A stretch of DNA of 59,670 nucleotides from the sequence record KP064094; one strand, given 5' to 3'. Every line of letters starts with the position of its first letter. Positions within the stretch are counted from its first letter, which is position 1. The translations under genes and the position numbers were made by a program. This document shows, in pieces, positions 28,622-35,508 of this stretch. A model generated the notes under the pieces. The model was not told the origin of the DNA. It ran no database searches and saw only the letters and a program-made list of their open reading frames with translations. This DNA comes from Escherichia phage CAjan.

Positions 28622-28848
28622 TAGCGATCCTCGATTGCTCTAATTGTGGTTAAATCTAATTCACAGGTTGGAGGGTATCCATAAAGTCCCATTTGTTTTC
28701 CTTGTGCATTAAACCATGTACCTGACGGATCCTGCCACTGCTTAGGTGTCTTGTGGAGAAATACTACTCTGTTTTCACCGTAATAATTAATTCTTACGCC
28801 TGTGTGAGTATATTTACGTTTACCTTTTGGTCTTCTTAAGTTAGCCAT
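28621..28848 (-). CDS. hypothetical protein
   Basis: 75-aa basic ORF, translationally coupled (TAATG). Confidence 0.4.
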   Translation of the reverse strand: MANLRRPKGKRKYTHTGVRINYYGENRVVFLHKTPKQWQDPSGTWFNAQGKQMGLYGYPPTCELDLTTIRAIEDR

Positions 28849-29768
28849 CAGAACAACTCCATTACACGATCACGGAATGTGCCGTCATGGGTAGCGTTAA
28901 TGTTTGCAGCAATTACACCATAAGCCCATAAATTGAAGGCAGCACGTGATTCATAGATTGTTGATAAACGTTCGTAAGTGAAACCGTTTTGCTCAAGGTA
29001 TTTAAGGACAGCGTCTTGTTCAATTTCAGTTAATGTTGAAACATGCTTACCAAAATGATGGCGGTCCGGTGACTTATCTGATACGCGCATTGGTCCCCAC
29101 GGAGGGGTAACCACACTTCCAAACGCTGCTGCTTGAATCCAGGAGGATGAGTCGCAGCTATACCACGGATAACGTTCCATGATGGTTGTTGACGTAATAC
29201 CAAACGCATGAAGTTTAATCTTAGCACGTCCGCTACCGTCGCAAATATATTTGTCCCACATGCGGTCAAGCCAAGTCTTAAGCGTGTCCGTGGAACGTCC
29301 TACCATACCCCCGATAGTGATATATTCGTAGTTCTTCATGTAGTATTCAAGATAGCGGAAGTCCTCCCCAAAGTGAAAGCAAGGTAACGGTTTAGCACCG
29401 CGTGCTTCCATTTCAAGTTGGTTACGGTAGGTTTGCAACGGATCACCGATACCATCGAGCACCGACGCCATTACTGCGCCATCTTCTACGCGAAGGATGT
29501 CTTTGTTGCGCTTGATGTATTCGCAGTATTCAACAATATCAATGTGAGCACCTAACGAGTGCGCGGAGAATGCACCGGAGTCGAGAAACACTTTAGCTCC
29601 ATCCGCACGCATCTGATCAACATACTTTTGACGTCCAACGTAGTGGTATGATTCCAAAATATGGGGCAGATTGCGCGTGATATTTTTCTCATGCTCAGAC
29701 AGCTTTTCATAACGCTGCTGTCCAGGCATATATCCGTTCGTGTAAACTGCTGCCATAAAAACGTTCAT
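28848..29768 (-). CDS. dpdA: DpdA-like DNA 7-deazaguanine transglycosylase (TGT superfamily)
   Basis: 306 aa with FLDSGAFS, analogous to the DSGGFQ motif of tRNA-guanine transglycosylases; adjacent to FolE/QueD/QueC/QueE genes. Confidence 0.65.
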   Translation of the reverse strand: MNVFMAAVYTNGYMPGQQRYEKLSEHEKNITRNLPHILESYHYVGRQKYVDQMRADGAKVFLDSGAFSAHSLGAHIDIVEYCEYIKRNKDILRVEDGAVMASVLDGIGDPLQTYRNQLEMEARGAKPLPCFHFGEDFRYLEYYMKNYEYITIGGMVGRSTDTLKTWLDRMWDKYICDGSGRAKIKLHAFGITSTTIMERYPWYSCDSSSWIQAAAFGSVVTPPWGPMRVSDKSPDRHHFGKHVSTLTEIEQDAVLKYLEQNGFTYERLSTIYESRAAFNLWAYGVIAANINATHDGTFRDRVMELF

Positions 29769-29971
29769 TTTTGGAACGGTCCTCCAAACTGATCAATTAG
29801 TTCTAAAGTACGCCACACTTCATTAAATGCTTCGTCCGCTTGATGTTTAGCGTCAATAAGCTGCTGCTTTAAGACATTTGTAGGAGCATCATTCTGTATC
29901 GCAGAGCAAGCATCCGCAGTACCTGCTTTAAGCTTGTAGAATGCAGCTTCTAAAATTAATTGTCTTGACAT
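29765..29971 (-). CDS. hypothetical protein
   Basis: 68 aa from ATG 29971; start uncertain (track gives 29998). Confidence 0.35.
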   Translation of the reverse strand: MSRQLILEAAFYKLKAGTADACSAIQNDAPTNVLKQQLIDAKHQADEAFNEVWRTLELIDQFGGPFQK

Positions 29972-30042
29972 ATTTCCCCCAATGACTAAAAAGCCCATAC
30001 CAGTATTATGACCGATATGGGCTTGATCTGTAAAGCTATCTA

Positions 30043-30633
30043 TTATTTACAAGCTTCAAGGAACTCCCGGCGCCATTCTTTACCAATATCGCTACCATGC
30101 TCCAGTTCTGTAGCGCCCCGGAACGCTTTGGTAATAGTAGAGCTTCCGCATACCTGCTTGACGCCACGACTTTCCATGCACATATGCTTGGCGTCAATAT
30201 AAACACATACAGCTTTCGGGTTTAAATGCTCCTGAATAGCGTCTGCAATCTGGTTAGTAAGACGTTCCTGAACTTGCAGTCGACGACTAAAAGCATCCAC
30301 AACGCGAGACAGCTTACTAAGCCCAACGATCTTCCCATTGGGGACATAACCCACAACAGCACGCCCGATAATAGGAGCCATGTGATGCTCACAATGACTG
30401 TATACAGGAATATCACGGACAATGACCATTTCATCCGCACCTTCCGCACCATCTTCAAAGGTTTTAAACAATCCAGCGATATCTACATCGTAACCGCTGA
30501 ACCACGTTGCATAAGCTTTCGCTACACGCTCCGGAGTTTCCATCAACCCATCACGCAGACCTTCTTCTGCTTTTACGCCTTCAATCTGACGCAGGATAGA
30601 AATAATATTCGCTTCGAGTATTGTTTTATTCAT
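30043..30633 (-). CDS. folE: GTP cyclohydrolase I
   Basis: 196 aa with HCEHHMAPI zinc-binding active-site motif of GTP cyclohydrolase I. Confidence 0.85.
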   Translation of the reverse strand: MNKTILEANIISILRQIEGVKAEEGLRDGLMETPERVAKAYATWFSGYDVDIAGLFKTFEDGAEGADEMVIVRDIPVYSHCEHHMAPIIGRAVVGYVPNGKIVGLSKLSRVVDAFSRRLQVQERLTNQIADAIQEHLNPKAVCVYIDAKHMCMESRGVKQVCGSSTITKAFRGATELEHGSDIGKEWRREFLEACK

Positions 30634-30669
30634 GGTTTGCAGTTTCCTTGTTTGTTAATGTGGTCATAC

Positions 30670-31191
30670 TTACAGGCTATAATTTACGTGACATTTCAAA
30701 GTTTCTTCGATGGTGCATTCTACAAGTTGAACACCATGCTCGTCAAGCAGTTGCGGCCCAATTACTTCAACCATGTATGCAGCTAAGTTTTCCGCAGTTG
30801 GGTTGAACGGTAGAGCTACCAGTGAATCAACGAAATGTGAGTGCTCTTCTTCTGTAATATAACCTTCACTTTCATCCGCTAAAACATCACGAAGACCGAT
30901 AAGTAAGTGATCTTTTTCCCAATGCAGGAACTTATGATCCCAGTTATCTTCCAGCCACTGGCAAAGCGTAGTTTTAACCACACTGAAGTCGATAACACGA
31001 CCAACACTGTCCAGGCCTCCTTCTAGCGTCAGTTTACCGCACGTAATCTTTTTAACATCCGTGCGACCTTTCGGGGCAACCTTAAAGTGAAACTTATAGT
31101 TATGTCCGTGAAGATGTCGACATTTGCTTTCATGTCCTACAACACGGTGCCCAGCGCAAATTTCATGTGAACGGATCACTGTATAGCTCAT
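30670..31191 (-). CDS. queD: 6-carboxy-5,6,7,8-tetrahydropterin synthase
   Basis: 173 aa with CxxHGH-type motif (CRHLHGHNY) and second His/Glu region typical of QueD/PTPS family. Confidence 0.85.
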   Translation of the reverse strand: MSYTVIRSHEICAGHRVVGHESKCRHLHGHNYKFHFKVAPKGRTDVKKITCGKLTLEGGLDSVGRVIDFSVVKTTLCQWLEDNWDHKFLHWEKDHLLIGLRDVLADESEGYITEEEHSHFVDSLVALPFNPTAENLAAYMVEVIGPQLLDEHGVQLVECTIEETLKCHVNYSL

Positions 31192-31192
31192 T

Positions 31193-31516
31193 TTATTCTC
31201 CTAACTCTGCTTTAACCGCTGCTTCGATATCTTCAAGGGCTTTAAGTTCATGAGTATAGTAACTCATATCATCTGGTTCAGTCGACTCTTCGTGCATGGT
31301 TTCTAATGCTTGACGCCATATAGCTATGTGACCTTTAATCATACATGCAAGCGAACTATGACCTTTGTAAACTGCTTTGTCCACTTGCATCTGTGGGTTG
31401 AATTGCACAATAGCATCTTCAACAAGATCAATCAGATCATATGCTTGTTGAGGGACTGGGTTTCCAAATGCTTTATGAGCTATACCCATTCTTGCTAAAT
31501 TACTTATCCTATTCAT
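31193..31516 (-). CDS. hypothetical protein embedded in the deazaguanine cluster
   Basis: 107 aa, SD AAGGAG; no recognised motif. Confidence 0.45.
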   Translation of the reverse strand: MNRISNLARMGIAHKAFGNPVPQQAYDLIDLVEDAIVQFNPQMQVDKAVYKGHSSLACMIKGHIAIWRQALETMHEESTEPDDMSYYTHELKALEDIEAAVKAELGE

Positions 31517-32082
31517 TTCGATACTCCTTTCGATTGTTCAATTTCTAACGCACGCTGTGCGGACGCAATAATGTCTTTTAAGTCTTCTACCAGACTTTTA
31601 TGCCCGCGCTCACCGGGTTGCAATGCTTTTTTGATAAGGTGTTGCAGAGCTGGGTTCGTTGTTTCCCAGGCGGTAAGAACATCATACACATCTACAACAA
31701 TTGAAGCAACATGCCCGTCAATATCTTTACCGCGGATAAGGCGCTGGTATTTGGTCAGACGGTTATCTTCAGGATAGCTCTGGTAACGCGCTTCTGGAAC
31801 CGTCATTGCAATTTCCATCACTTCTTTAAACTTGTGCTCGGTTATTGGGTCTTTGCTGGTCATTTGTTGATTAATTGGCTCTTCAATGATGTAACGCCAA
31901 GCAGTCACATCAAATTGTGTGGTCATTGGGATTGGCGAATATGACCATATCCAACCAGCTCCGCGATGGTTTCTTAAAACGTTACCATTTCTTAGTTTCA
32001 CTTCAAAATGGTCATTCTGAAGATAGACGGGCATCCCTTTGCCGTCGTGTTTGTGCCAAATTTTATCCAGATTATCTTTCAT
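31513..32082 (-). CDS. hypothetical protein embedded in the deazaguanine cluster
   Basis: about 189 aa from ATG 32082 (track start 32121 is TTG); no recognised motif. Confidence 0.45.
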   Translation of the reverse strand: MKDNLDKIWHKHDGKGMPVYLQNDHFEVKLRNGNVLRNHRGAGWIWSYSPIPMTTQFDVTAWRYIIEEPINQQMTSKDPITEHKFKEVMEIAMTVPEARYQSYPEDNRLTKYQRLIRGKDIDGHVASIVVDVYDVLTAWETTNPALQHLIKKALQPGERGHKSLVEDLKDIIASAQRALEIEQSKGVSK

Positions 32083-32083
32083 T

Positions 32084-32563
32084 TTATGCTCTCGCTGTAC
32101 GTGAATGAACTTCGTAAACAACCCAAAGGATAGCTGATGCTGTGAACTTACTTAAGCTCATTGCTACCATCGATCCCGGATTTACAATACCAATAATACT
32201 TAAGAATACAATGGAGTCAATTGGTACTGCGACCAAAGAGCTGATAAATACTCGTTGATGGAAAGGCTTCTTGGTGACCGTGTATACCACATAGTCAGCA
32301 AACTCGCTAAGTGCAAATGACGCAACGGATGCAACTACAACCGCAGGATCCCCGAACACCCAGCTAAGAATGCAACCGACAATCATTGCAGGGATAACGC
32401 CTTTGCCAGCGTTACGCTGTGCGTAGTCACGCAGGACGAAGATAATACCTACGAAGAAAGCCATCATGGGTACTACGCCAAGCGGCGTGTTAAGCATTGG
32501 AAGGTAGGAAAAGCCCAGGTTTACGAACGTAATTGCAGCCAGGTAAGCAACGATAAATTTCAT
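32084..32563 (-). CDS. integral membrane protein, possible 7-deazaguanine precursor transporter
   Basis: 159 aa, 4-5 hydrophobic helices, SD GGAGA; location inside a queuosine-precursor cluster suggests a YhhQ/QueT-like role (inference). Confidence 0.4.
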   Translation of the reverse strand: MKFIVAYLAAITFVNLGFSYLPMLNTPLGVVPMMAFFVGIIFVLRDYAQRNAGKGVIPAMIVGCILSWVFGDPAVVVASVASFALSEFADYVVYTVTKKPFHQRVFISSLVAVPIDSIVFLSIIGIVNPGSMVAMSLSKFTASAILWVVYEVHSRTARA

Positions 32564-32683
32564 ACTTTTGTTCTCCAGTTTTAACAGCGTTATTCGCTGG
32601 TTGTTGGGTTTAAAAGCTTTAGTAGTATAGTTGGGTTACCGCACCCTAAACAATGCGCTAGCGGTGCGGTTTTCGCGGTAAGA

Positions 32684-33406
32684 TCAAACGTGTTTGCTGT
32701 AAGCGTTATCCATAAATTCAGTGTAACCCTTAGCACGGAGTTTACACGCTGGGCATTCCCCGCAACCGTATCCCCAGTCATGCAAAGTTCGACGAATGCC
32801 GTTATAGCAGGTGTGCGACTGTTCAATAACTGTGGTTAAGAAACCAACCTTGTCCGCCAGCTCAAACGTTTCAGCTTTGTTTAAACGCATAAGTGGGGTA
32901 ACAAAATGAATATCTGTTTCATATCCAACGTTTAAGGTAGCTTCAAGCAAATCAACAAACTGCTGACGGCAATCCGGATAACCGCTATAGTCCGTTTCAC
33001 ATACGCCTGTAACCACATATCGGGCTCCGACCTTCTGCGCGTAAGCGTGCGCGGTTGTCAGAAAAAGCGCATTACGATTTGGCACAAAACTTGCCGGAAG
33101 GTTATTGTGCTGTTCGTGATGCTCGTTGACATCACCTTCGTTCCCGATCAAAGCGCTATTACCAATCTGTTTCAAAGCTGGTAATTCGAAGACAACAAAC
33201 GGGACATTGTGCTCTTTACAAATTTGATTAGCACAAGCCAGCTCAATGTTATGACGTTGACCGTATGCAAAACCAATAGCGTAAACTTTATCATAGTTAT
33301 TAAGCGCAAGACCTAGACAAGTCACGCTGTCCTGACCGCCAGACAGGACCACAACGGCGGAGTTATGATTTTTTACAGGGAACACCAGTTTATCTAATTT
33401 ATTCAT
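32684..33406 (-). CDS. queC: 7-cyano-7-deazaguanine (preQ0) synthase
   Basis: 240 aa with PP-loop SGGQDS and C-terminal zinc-binding cysteines (CYNG...CGECPACKLR); no fused amidotransferase domain. Confidence 0.85.
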   Translation of the reverse strand: MNKLDKLVFPVKNHNSAVVVLSGGQDSVTCLGLALNNYDKVYAIGFAYGQRHNIELACANQICKEHNVPFVVFELPALKQIGNSALIGNEGDVNEHHEQHNNLPASFVPNRNALFLTTAHAYAQKVGARYVVTGVCETDYSGYPDCRQQFVDLLEATLNVGYETDIHFVTPLMRLNKAETFELADKVGFLTTVIEQSHTCYNGIRRTLHDWGYGCGECPACKLRAKGYTEFMDNAYSKHV

Positions 33407-33407
33407 T

Positions 33408-33596
33408 TTAGAAACCTTTAAGGCTAATATTAAGGTTAACGACTACTTGTTCAACTACATCTTCACAGGTCACCTGACGCTTGTGAATTTCAAGTTCCGA
33501 ATATATTTTCTTTGAAGCTGCGCGACATAGGGCGTCATTCAATTCGTCTTGTAGACGTTGAATCTTGTGCATAAGCACTACAGTTTCTTCATTCAT
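33408..33596 (-). CDS. hypothetical small protein
   Basis: 62 aa from ATG 33596 with SD AAGGTG. Confidence 0.35.
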   Translation of the reverse strand: MNEETVVLMHKIQRLQDELNDALCRAASKKIYSELEIHKRQVTCEDVVEQVVVNLNISLKGF

Positions 33597-33801
33597 TTTC
33601 CACACCTTTAATATAACAAGGGTTGATTGTTACATTTGACATTACAATTGGATGATTACGTGCTCCAATTGTACTAACGTGATTAATATCTAATTCTACA
33701 TGCACACCCTGCATAGTAGCATGGGCAATTGCAGAATTAAGTTTTTCTACCAGCTCAGTAATCATTTCCTGATGCTGTTTTGCTTCTTCTAAAGTGATCA
33801 T
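33589..33801 (-). CDS. hypothetical small protein
   Basis: 70 aa; TAATG-coupled to queE. Confidence 0.4.
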   Translation of the reverse strand: MITLEEAKQHQEMITELVEKLNSAIAHATMQGVHVELDINHVSTIGARNHPIVMSNVTINPCYIKGVENE

Positions 33802-34508
33802 TATTCTACCCCAATATATTTGTGAACCTGAAGCTGCAACGTGTAACCGTGTTTCATACAGCTTTGGACAACGGCTTGGATGTTACTGTGGTTAAGATCT
33901 TCATCCTGCTCGTCCATTGGCTGTAAATATATCTTACCCTTGAAACCCTTCGGAGGTCTAGCGATAAATGGCGTAGCTTGATGATCTAATGCCTGAAGCG
34001 GCAAACCATCTTCCACGTTTACACAGCACGCTTTAAGTACATATTTAAATGCATTAGCGCGGCGCAGCACAGAAGGATGAATCTTTGAGGTCTTGGGACT
34101 ACATACAATTACAGGTAACTGGGAAAAGTTCTTAGGTAAAGGCATAGACCCATTAGTTTCAATTTGCACCAAATACCCGCGCGATAACAGTTGTTCAATA
34201 AACGGGTTAATTTGCTGACGGAACGGTTCGCCCCCAGTGATAACCACAAGTGAGGTGCTATTGCCGGATTCCAGCTTACGGCTTTCGATTAAACGCATAA
34301 TATCGACAATGTGATAAAGACTACGACCAACAGTATAATCTGTATCACAGCCAGGGCATTGCAGATTACACCCAGCAAGACGCACAAATACAGCAGGTTG
34401 GCCGCAGAATGGACCTTCACCCTGAATGGTAGAGAATACCGAATGCACGTCTAAATACATATCGTTTTCTTTAGAACGGGACTCGGGAGCTTGTTGATTA
34501 ATATTCAT
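33801..34508 (-). CDS. queE: 7-carboxy-7-deazaguanine synthase (radical SAM)
   Basis: 235 aa with CNLQCPGC (CxxxCxxC radical SAM cluster motif) and QueE-like length; SD AGAGGA. Confidence 0.85.
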   Translation of the reverse strand: MNINQQAPESRSKENDMYLDVHSVFSTIQGEGPFCGQPAVFVRLAGCNLQCPGCDTDYTVGRSLYHIVDIMRLIESRKLESGNSTSLVVITGGEPFRQQINPFIEQLLSRGYLVQIETNGSMPLPKNFSQLPVIVCSPKTSKIHPSVLRRANAFKYVLKACCVNVEDGLPLQALDHQATPFIARPPKGFKGKIYLQPMDEQDEDLNHSNIQAVVQSCMKHGYTLQLQVHKYIGVE

Positions 34509-34521
34509 CTTAAATCCTCTA

Positions 34522-34553
34522 GTGAAAAAGAAAGCGCCTCATTGGGCGCTTTC
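34522..34553 (-). terminator. intrinsic terminator-like hairpin upstream of queE
   Basis: GAAAGCGCC-TCATTG-GGCGCTTTC with a T-run on the minus strand. Confidence 0.45.
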
Positions 34554-34577
34554 ATTATAACGTGATATGTTTTGATA

Positions 34578-35381
34578 TTACAAGCCGTTCAGGGCTTCCG
34601 GTACTGGCATAGGTACGCGACCAGTCACACCATTAAACTTCTTCCAACGCGCATACTGAGTTTTAACGGTATCTTCGTTCAGACCGTGGCGACCAGCCAG
34701 ATTCAGAACATAAGAGATTGGAGCAGGCTGACCCAGCGTAGCGCTAATCTGATCCATCAGAGCCCAGGCACGACCGCAGGAAGTTTCCGGTTGCGGACGA
34801 CGAACACCATTCTGTTCAGGCATACGGTTCGCTTCTTTCGCTTTTTCACGTTCAGCTTTTTCGCGGGCTTTTTCAGCAGCCTTTTCAGCCTGTTTAGCAG
34901 CGCGGATCTTGTCTTTGAAGCCTTTGATAGACGAATCCAGTTCGTCGACCATGCTCTGAGCAGCAGTTACTGCACCGGACAGATCTTCACCTTTGGATTT
35001 TTTAACAACTGCTTTCAGATCTTTCAGAGCATTCTTTAAATGCTTCAGCTGTTCGGAACCCTTAGATTCTGCTTCCGTAATCTGTTCAACAGTGCTTTCA
35101 TCGGTAATACCGGATAAAGCAAACTTCACGGTTTCAACTGCCTGGGAAAGAGCGGTAAATTTATTTTCAGCTTCAGTACGAATTTCAGCTTGTTTCTTTT
35201 CAGCGGCAGCTTTTTTCTCTGCTTCTTTTTTCTCTTTTGCTACGCGTGCAGCTTCAGCGGCAGCGGCTTTTTTAGCTTCTGCGTCGTTAGCAGTAGCTTC
35301 TTTCTTTGCAGGCTTAGCAGATTTTGCAGCGGCAGCAGCGGCTGCGGCAGCAGCGGCTTTCTTATCTTCAATATTACTCAT
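34578..35381 (-). CDS. Ala/Lys-rich histone H1-like protein with C-terminal HTH-like domain
   Basis: about 267 aa from ATG 35381; AKKA/KAAAE-type low-complexity repeats over about 200 aa, then a globular C-terminal segment (GRAWALMDQISATLGQPAPISYVLNLAGRHGLNEDTVKTQYARW). Confidence 0.5.
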   Translation of the reverse strand: MSNIEDKKAAAAAAAAAAAKSAKPAKKEATANDAEAKKAAAAEAARVAKEKKEAEKKAAAEKKQAEIRTEAENKFTALSQAVETVKFALSGITDESTVEQITEAESKGSEQLKHLKNALKDLKAVVKKSKGEDLSGAVTAAQSMVDELDSSIKGFKDKIRAAKQAEKAAEKAREKAEREKAKEANRMPEQNGVRRPQPETSCGRAWALMDQISATLGQPAPISYVLNLAGRHGLNEDTVKTQYARWKKFNGVTGRVPMPVPEALNGL

Positions 35382-35508
35382 TTTCTTCACTCCGAATTAT
35401 TATGGGTTCGTTTGTTACCAACGGGGTTAAATGTACCAAAGGATTTTGTGACACGCAACCCCTTACATAAACATTTTTAAAAATATTTTTGATCAGGGTT
35501 AGAACTTA

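Follow-up and report, generated by a model that had tools for sequence, protein, structure and literature searches.

The minus-strand genes at positions 28848-34508 of the Escherichia phage CAjan sequence (record KP064094) almost certainly form a DNA-hypermodification module that produces 2'-deoxy-preQ0 (dPreQ0), in which FolE, QueD, QueE, and QueC as the pathway enzymes are combined with the transglycosylase DpdA and no later tailoring step follows. The whole stretch of DNA that was analyzed, referred to here as the window, is 59,670 bp long with a GC content of 44.7%. By megablast, the block is assigned to the genus Seuratvirus in the subfamily Queuovirinae; its closest record is phage Skure, with 99.0% identity over 100% of the block, and many other records match at ~90 to 93%. 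The predicted gene content is that of the phage dPreQ0 class (group 2 of Hutinet et al. 2019: DpdA plus FolE, QueD, QueE, and QueC, no amidotransferase), and among phage 7-deazaguanine systems the CAjan cluster is the type example of this class. The gene identities, the fold of DpdA with its conserved aspartate pair, and the absence of tailoring enzymes come from the present analysis. The chemical product, its genetic dependence (deletions of dpdA, folE, queC, and yhhQ), the target motifs GA and GGC, and the restriction phenotype are taken from CAjan literature of 2019 to 2020 (PMC6884629, PMC7544227). Because the system has already been characterized in CAjan, our finding adds no new biology. 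7-Deazaguanine DNA modification is a genuine antirestriction strategy, and in this phage its pathway and product can be read from the raw sequence.

The block encodes a predicted pathway from GTP to preQ0

The listing of open reading frames (ORFs) shows that 28848-34508 is part of a long minus-strand block, with the stop codon of dpdA at 28848 and the start codon of queE at 34508. An initial annotation, made from the sequence alone, had described five enzymes here on one strand and had quoted a motif for each. The ORFs were found at the coordinates it gave, and all five motifs are present in minus-strand ORFs. The five genes are as follows.

28848..29768, minus strand: dpdA, predicted phage DpdA1-type DNA guanine transglycosylase (306 aa); PHROG_887, AlphaFold2 (AF2) fold, published deletion
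30043..30633, minus strand: folE, GTP cyclohydrolase I, GTP to dihydroneopterin triphosphate (H2NTP), 196 aa; PF01227, TIGR00063
30670..31191, minus strand: queD, 6-carboxytetrahydropterin synthase, 173 aa; Pfam PTPS, CxxxHGH signature
32684..33406, minus strand: queC, 7-cyano-7-deazaguanine (preQ0) synthase, stand-alone without a Gat domain, 240 aa; Pfam QueC, TIGR00364
33801..34508, minus strand: queE, radical S-adenosylmethionine (SAM) 7-carboxy-7-deazaguanine synthase, 235 aa; CxxxCxxC, PHROG_2076

The annotation had called this gene set complete. That description stands for the five enzymes, but the block holds 11 ORFs, and the annotation did not mention the other six, a YhhQ-like gene and five hypothetical ORFs of 77, 107, 189, 65, and 70 aa.

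Profile searches returned Pfam or PHROG matches for FolE, QueD, QueE, and QueC, in agreement with the annotation, and FolE and QueC also scored above their NCBIfam cutoffs. FolE, which carries HCEHHMAPI at aa 80, matched Pfam GTP_cyclohydroI (PF01227) at 1e-62 and TIGR00063 at 195.9 bits (cutoff, 181.6). For QueC the values were 8e-75 for Pfam QueC and 243 bits for TIGR00364 (cutoff, 150); the protein has SGGQDS at aa 22 and cysteines at positions 200, 215, 218, and 221. QueD matched Pfam PTPS at 5e-20 and reached 59 bits against TIGR03367, below the cutoff of 89. Its motif CRHLHGHNY at aa 24 keeps the QueD signature CxxxHGH (C24RHLH28GH30). In QueE, CNLQCPGC at aa 47 supplies the radical-SAM CxxxCxxC cysteines C47, C51, and C54. 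Its top five NCBIfam matches are the five QueE equivalog models (6e-28 to 2e-20, all below curated cutoffs), and it matched the QueE-like family PHROG_2076 at 6e-69. These predicted identities match a full GTP-to-preQ0 pathway.

The Pfam alignment of the 173-aa QueD runs from residue 5 to 171 on a model of 121 positions, which points to ~50 inserted residues. QueD of the type found in CAjan and in the Nonagvirus JenP1 gave no tblastn match at an E value of ≤1e-3 to queD of phages Iggy, BcepGomr, R7M, and RHEph06. The other pathway enzymes share 34 to 63% identity with the genes of these four.

No enzyme that would alter the product was found

The initial annotation had reported neither a QueF-like reductase nor an amidotransferase fused to QueC, and had predicted dPreQ0 as the modified base instead of 2'-deoxy-preQ1 (dPreQ1) or 2'-deoxyarchaeosine (dG+). 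Both statements held when the window was searched systematically. Pfam scans of 63 further ORFs, which covered orf65, orf70, and practically every ORF outside the block with a length of 90 aa or more, returned replication, recombination, lysis, and structural families. Families for QueF, ArcS, glutamine amidotransferases, methyltransferases, and formyltransferases were absent from the matches. The QueF-L, DpdL, and DpdN families were likewise not listed in the scans, and DpdM, which was looked for through Pfam alone, had no candidate match. Six-frame tblastn of the window yielded only noise, both with E. coli QueF as the query (best E value, 6.2) and with the Gat half of the JenP1 Gat-QueC protein (E values of ≥1.4); of the complete JenP1 protein, only residues 241 to 456, the QueC half, aligned to the window QueC. 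As these searches turned up neither QueF, a Gat domain, nor ArcS, and no methyl- or formyltransferase, the pathway is predicted to end at dPreQ0. Published liquid chromatography-tandem mass spectrometry (LC-MS/MS) of CAjan virion DNA agrees with this prediction: dPreQ0 was present at 70,628 per 10^6 nucleotides (nt), or ~32% of G (Hutinet et al. 2019, PMC6884629), whereas dG+, dPreQ1, 2'-deoxy-7-amido-7-deazaguanosine (dADG), and 2'-deoxyqueuosine (dQ) were each below 6 per 10^6 nt, making dPreQ0 the sole 7-deazaguanine (PMC6884629).

Alternatively, the final base could be a further derivative, such as dADG, dG+, dPreQ1, the methylated or formylated forms of dPreQ1 (mdPreQ1 and fdPreQ1), or 2'-deoxy-7-deazaguanine (dDG), made by an unrecognized enzyme among the hypothetical ORFs. 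The cluster does contain five small ORFs of unknown function, and FolE has weak matches to QueF models (24.7 bits for Pfam and 29.5 bits for TIGR03139). The latter are below threshold, in a protein that passes its own equivalog cutoff, and would be explained by the T-fold that the FolE and QueF families have in common. Further, QueD keeps CxxxHGH and not LxxxHRHxF, the signature of the DpdL variant (PMC10516641), and therefore is not DpdL. With no tailoring enzyme in the Pfam and tblastn searches and dADG, dG+, dPreQ1, and dQ each below 6 per 10^6 nt in CAjan DNA, a further derivative is very unlikely, and dPreQ0 remains the expected product.

The modeled fold of DpdA is that of the TGT superfamily

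The fifth enzyme had been described in the initial annotation as a protein of the tRNA-guanine transglycosylase (TGT) superfamily consistent with DpdA. Neither Pfam nor NCBIfam provided support for this description; it was borne out by the predicted fold, by PHROG_887, and by identity to other DpdA proteins. PHROG_887 ('queuine tRNA-ribosyltransferase'), matched at 8e-96, was the sole profile to recognize the protein, which carries FLDSGAFS at aa 61.

Because the sequence-level evidence for a TGT was weak, we tested the fold with a structure model. An initial AF2 model that drew on 38 close homologs was poor (predicted local distance difference test score [pLDDT], 63), and its top Foldseek match, the archaeal enzyme ArcTGT, was marginal (E value, 0.013) and stood among generic TIM barrels. 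An exhaustive HMMER search identified 5,614 representative relatives, 62 of which (29 to 65% identity) were aligned for a second model. This model reached a pLDDT of 96.8 and a predicted template modeling score (pTM) of 0.92. A Foldseek search with it against the PDB returned 114 matches with E values of ≤1e-3, and the top 50 all belong to the TGT superfamily (E values of 2e-7 to 1e-4). Among the matches are ArcTGT (1j2b, 2e-7, and 1iq8), TGT enzymes from human, mouse, and Zymomonas, and the 'DNA preQ0 insertase DpdA' 7ui4 (6e-5; query-normalized TM score [TMq], 0.56). The annotation had named a match to tRNA-specific enzymes only, together with virion DNA lacking modified guanine, as contrary to its proposal; the matches include the DNA enzyme 7ui4.

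The proposed active-site residues are conserved as well. All members of the 62-sequence family alignment have D206, and at least 90% of them have D63. These are the positions proposed as nucleophile and general base in DpdA (PMC7544227), and nine DpdA residues named in that study occur at identical numbers in the ORF at 28848-29768. By analogy with TGT, DpdA may exchange bases through a covalent mechanism using these two aspartates.

Several results weigh against this assignment and, more broadly, against the reading of the block as a dPreQ0 module. A Pfam search with DpdA gave no match, including to the TGT family (PF01702), so that a TGT is undetectable by sequence profile, and the Pfam TGT model matched none of the 62 family members. 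A phmmer search of DpdA against the PDB found no match, and hmmsearch with a shallow profile found nothing relevant; the deeper family profile reached the bacterial DpdA 7ui4 only at an E value of 0.14. Comparison of DpdA with E. coli Tgt by hhalign gave a probability of 3.4%, though FLDSGAFS was aligned with LTDSGGFQ. The fold comparison, in turn, cannot tell DNA-acting from tRNA-acting TGT enzymes. Outside DpdA, the scores of QueD, QueE, and the YhhQ-like protein fall under the NCBIfam curated cutoffs. None of these points conflicts with the dPreQ0 reading. They do bear on how DpdA is classified: against the NCBIfam bacterial DpdA equivalog NF041059 it scored 16.9 bits, over residues 147 to 212 only, with a cutoff of 200, and thus is not a member. 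We therefore describe CAjan DpdA as a member of the TGT superfamily by modeled fold that lies outside both the Pfam TGT family and the bacterial DpdA equivalog and that groups by sequence with phage DpdA proteins. It is 68% identical to DpdA of the Nonagvirus JenP1 and 72% identical to DpdA of Pseudomonas phage Iggy.

A different function that these results must be weighed against is tRNA modification. The cluster could boost precursors of queuosine or archaeosine, with the TGT-like enzyme acting on host tRNA to tune translation. The nearest solved structures by fold, ArcTGT 1j2b and 1iq8, are indeed tRNA enzymes, and many database records name the dpdA-like gene queuine tRNA-ribosyltransferase. 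However, the only cysteines in CAjan DpdA are at positions 82, 130, 176, and 205, and the TGT zinc motif CxCxxC...H is therefore absent. At 306 aa, compared with 375 aa for E. coli Tgt and a 576-residue chain for ArcTGT, the protein cannot hold the C-terminal domains of ArcTGT. No tRNA genes are encoded in the window. On its own, the DpdA1 of phage 9g, described as closely related, puts dPreQ0 into plasmid DNA, and complementation of E. coli tgt fails (PMC6884629); our comparison used the sequence from the Nonagvirus JenP1 in place of that of 9g, which is also a Nonagvirus according to PMC6884629. In CAjan, deletion of dpdA lowered dPreQ0 in DNA to below 6 per 10^6 nt, that is, all of it was lost (PMC6884629). 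A role in tRNA modification is thus highly improbable and, for practical purposes, already refuted. The sequence comparisons instead support DpdA as a phage enzyme of the DpdA1 type that acts on DNA.

Published deletions link the cluster to modification and restriction resistance

The dpdA deletion also bears on the restriction evasion that the initial annotation had attributed to the modification: DNA of the mutant was cut by all restriction enzymes tested (PMC6884629). Deletion of queC lowered dPreQ0 12-fold by LC-MS/MS (Kot et al. 2020, PMC7544227). In nanopore sequencing of the folE and queC deletions, the modification signal was under the cutoff for both, and the folE deletion left the DNA sensitive to restriction (PMC7544227). 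In vivo, the Queuovirinae withstand restriction-modification (RM) systems of types I and II and are sensitive to type III (PMC8594841). The published constructs could be placed on the genes described here. The anti-dpdA CRISPR spacer (PMC6884629) matches exactly once, at 29261-29290, a site within the published deletion (29212-29521), and the published deletion positions for folE (30,221), queC (32,786), and dpdA (29,212) fall inside the respective ORFs.

The proposal that 7-deazaguanines are inserted into genomic DNA is confirmed by the published dPreQ0 content, with the amendment that replacement is partial and motif specific, at GA and GGC (PMC7544227). Of all G in the window, 28.1% occur in the context GA or GGC; this density of 62.9 per 10^3 nt falls within the range of the published values, which are 44, 52, and 70.6 per 10^3 nt. 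CAjan DNA is also reported to contain N6-methyl-dA (PMC7544227). Because no DNA methyltransferase family turned up in the Pfam scans of the window ORFs, this methylation is presumably made by the host.

An auxiliary role in pterin or folate metabolism for FolE and the PTPS-family protein, unrelated to DNA modification and with incidental clustering, is so improbable as to be negligible: the two alone would also fit the tetrahydrobiopterin and folate pathways, but QueE, QueC, and DpdA flank them in the same direction, the gene order recurs in five phage genera, the PTPS-family protein has the catalytic Cys motif of QueD, and the folE deletion has the effects on nanopore signal and restriction sensitivity given above.

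Proposed route to dPreQ0 in CAjan DNA

In the pathway that these genes would encode, FolE converts GTP to H2NTP, and QueD would then convert H2NTP to 6-carboxytetrahydropterin (CPH4). The radical-SAM enzyme QueE would use CPH4 to form 7-carboxy-7-deazaguanine (CDG), from which QueC, in an ATP-dependent reaction, would produce the free base preQ0. After replication, the TIM-barrel enzyme DpdA swaps guanine for preQ0 in the double-stranded DNA (dsDNA) of the phage, mainly at GA and GGC, and roughly 23 to 32% of G is replaced. Because QueF, an amidotransferase, and any later tailoring enzyme are lacking, the product remains dPreQ0, and the modified DNA resists many restriction enzymes of types I and II.

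Comparison with related systems

The gene order queE-queC-queD-folE-dpdA-clamp-polymerase is common to Seuratvirus, Nonagvirus, Iggyvirus, Amoyvirus, BcepGomr, and a Rhizobium phage. The Nonagvirus cluster (9g, JenP1), which makes dG+, shares this order beside the clamp and DNA polymerase genes, and the CAjan and JenP1 proteins are 78% (FolE), 74% (QueD), 68% (DpdA), and 64% (QueE) identical. The two clusters differ in the middle. Nonagvirus encodes a 471-aa Gat-QueC fusion, and the product in 9g is dG+, whereas CAjan has a stand-alone QueC of 240 aa. Identity between this QueC and the QueC half of JenP1 Gat-QueC (L004:3364-4779) is only 29%, and nothing in the JenP1 locus examined matches the YhhQ-like gene of CAjan. 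Because QueC identity is 29% compared with 64 to 78% for the other enzymes, the difference between dPreQ0 in Seuratvirus and dG+ in Nonagvirus looks, from these alignments, like a replacement of the middle of the cluster and not the gain or loss of a Gat domain.

Among the sampled loci, the closest QueC is that of Burkholderia phage BcepGomr (53%).

Pseudomonas phage Iggy (PMC10484667) resembles CAjan in encoding FolE, QueD, QueE, QueC, and a 72%-identical DpdA and in having dPreQ0 as its product. Iggy DpdA modifies GA only, with ~16.5% of G modified (PMC10484667), in contrast to GA and GGC in CAjan.

Like bacterial Tgt and ArcTGT, CAjan DpdA is predicted to be a TIM barrel with a first aspartate in D-S-G-(A/G)-F (FLDSGAFS; LTDSGGFQ in E. 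coli Tgt) and a second at the barrel center. Unlike these enzymes, it acts on dsDNA instead of tRNA, it has no zinc-cysteine motif, and it falls under every sequence-profile threshold.

The bacterial Dpd system pairs DpdA with the ATPase DpdB and with DpdC, which makes dADG. No counterpart of either partner was recognized in the CAjan window, and no Pfam family suggestive of the other bacterial Dpd components turned up in the window scans. Bacterial DpdA proteins are 413 to 436 aa long, compared with 306 aa in CAjan. What the phage shares with the bacterial Dpd RM system (DpdA/B/C plus DpdD-K; PMC10164549) is a TGT-fold DpdA that inserts preQ0 into DNA.

The remaining genes of the block

The cluster lies between a helicase gene on one side and the clamp and polymerase genes on the other. 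Neighboring genes in the block mostly abut or overlap by 1 to 17 nt, and the sole larger gaps are of 36, 44, and 120 nt. Kot et al. 2020 described the CAjan cluster as 12 genes, six of them assignable (PMC7544227). The features of the block and its upstream border other than the five enzyme genes are as follows.

29765..29998, minus strand: orf77, hypothetical; 4-nt overlap between its stop and the start of dpdA; PHROG_20065, unknown function
31193..31516, minus strand: orf107, hypothetical; PHROG_24659, unknown function; without a Pfam match
31513..32082, minus strand: orf189, hypothetical; PHROG_23361 at 2e-103, unknown function; ATG at 32082 as in the phage Skure annotation
32084..32563, minus strand: yhhQ-like gene, VUT-family membrane protein (159 aa), putative preQ0 salvage transporter; Vut_1, PF02592 in homologs
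33408..33605, minus strand: orf65, hypothetical; ORF listing
33589..33801, minus strand: orf70, hypothetical; ORF listing
34530..34553, minus strand: terminator-like hairpin with a 9-bp stem, six G-C pairs, and a T-run; between queE and the gene upstream

The YhhQ-like gene belongs to the cluster. Its protein scored 25.3 bits against Pfam Vut_1 (PF02592; cutoff, 27.2) and 22.2 bits against TIGR00697 (cutoff, 50.95). PF02592 occurs in more than half of its homologs (n = 108), and YhhQ or queuosine precursor transporter is the name given to several. The protein is a possible preQ0 importer that the system can do without; deletion of yhhQ in CAjan left modification unaltered (PMC7544227).

Table 1 of that study gives the 'yhhQ' deletion at 31,850 and a mutant genome of 59,120 bp, implying a deletion of 550 bp. 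As mapped (31850-32399), it would remove codons 1 to 77, the 5' part, of orf189 together with the last ~105 codons, the 3' two-thirds, of yhhQ. The methods of the same paper describe deletions of 150 to 350 bp within each gene, unlike the implied 550 bp (PMC7544227). Either the 'yhhQ' mutant is a double knockout, in which case orf189 is also dispensable for modification, or the table entry is imprecise.

Pfam searches at an E value of ≤10 with the small cluster ORFs, including orf107, orf189, orf65, and orf70, gave nothing usable. Among the loci compared, orf75, orf77, orf65, orf70, and the YhhQ-like gene occur in Seuratvirus only, and outside Seuratvirus orf107 has a weak match in BcepGomr only. 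The longest version of orf189 begins at TTG 32121, compared with the annotated ATG at 32082. Over its C-terminal 79 aa, the orf189 product shares 48% identity with JenP1 gp37. The C-terminal ~80 aa of orf189 are common to the PHROG families of unknown function phrog_2452, 35158, 13223, and 18443, and its N-terminal half is Seuratvirus specific.

It is unlikely that one or more of orf77, orf107, orf189, orf65, and orf70 encodes an accessory modification factor. Possible roles for such a factor are keeping host QueF or Tgt away from the preQ0 pool, setting when DpdA acts, and supplying the GGC target motif, which is absent from the target range of the 72%-identical Iggy DpdA. A core role is counted unlikely for the small ORFs because four of the five are without a match in the other four genera compared, apart from the weak one of orf107 in BcepGomr, and for orf189 also because the published 'yhhQ' deletion appears to take part of this gene while modification was unchanged.

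Intergenic sequences and the gene upstream of queE

The 120-nt gap between queC and yhhQ (32564-32683, minus strand) is the widest in the cluster. Within it lies a G+C-rich hairpin, ACCGCACC...GGGUGCGGU, that is not followed by a T-run. A preQ1 riboswitch upstream of yhhQ was considered for this gap and rejected: there was no Rfam match at gathering thresholds, and the fold (z = -2.2) is not compelling. Across the window, the Rfam scan returned nothing at gathering thresholds, and its sole match, to sraL, had an E value of 0.32, which is at chance level.

In the 69-nt gap before queE (34530-34583, minus strand), the hairpin GAAAGCGCC...GGCGCTTTC and a T-run come immediately after a promoter-like TTGTAA-18-TATAAT (10 of 12 matches). 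Counts of promoter-like and terminator-like sites in the region were no higher than in shuffled controls, and a function for the hairpin at 34530-34553 is thus only putative.

Just upstream of queE, at 34578-35390 on the minus strand, lies a gene for a 270-aa protein whose N-terminal two-thirds are of low complexity and rich in alanine, lysine, and glutamate. The protein had no significant Pfam match. It is 41% identical to a protein of JenP1, 65% over 69 aa to one of Iggy, and 40% each to proteins of Alteromonas phage R7M and RHEph06. Iggy and R7M both annotate a 'transcriptional activator' just upstream of queE, and that gene is most likely the one matched by 34578-35390.

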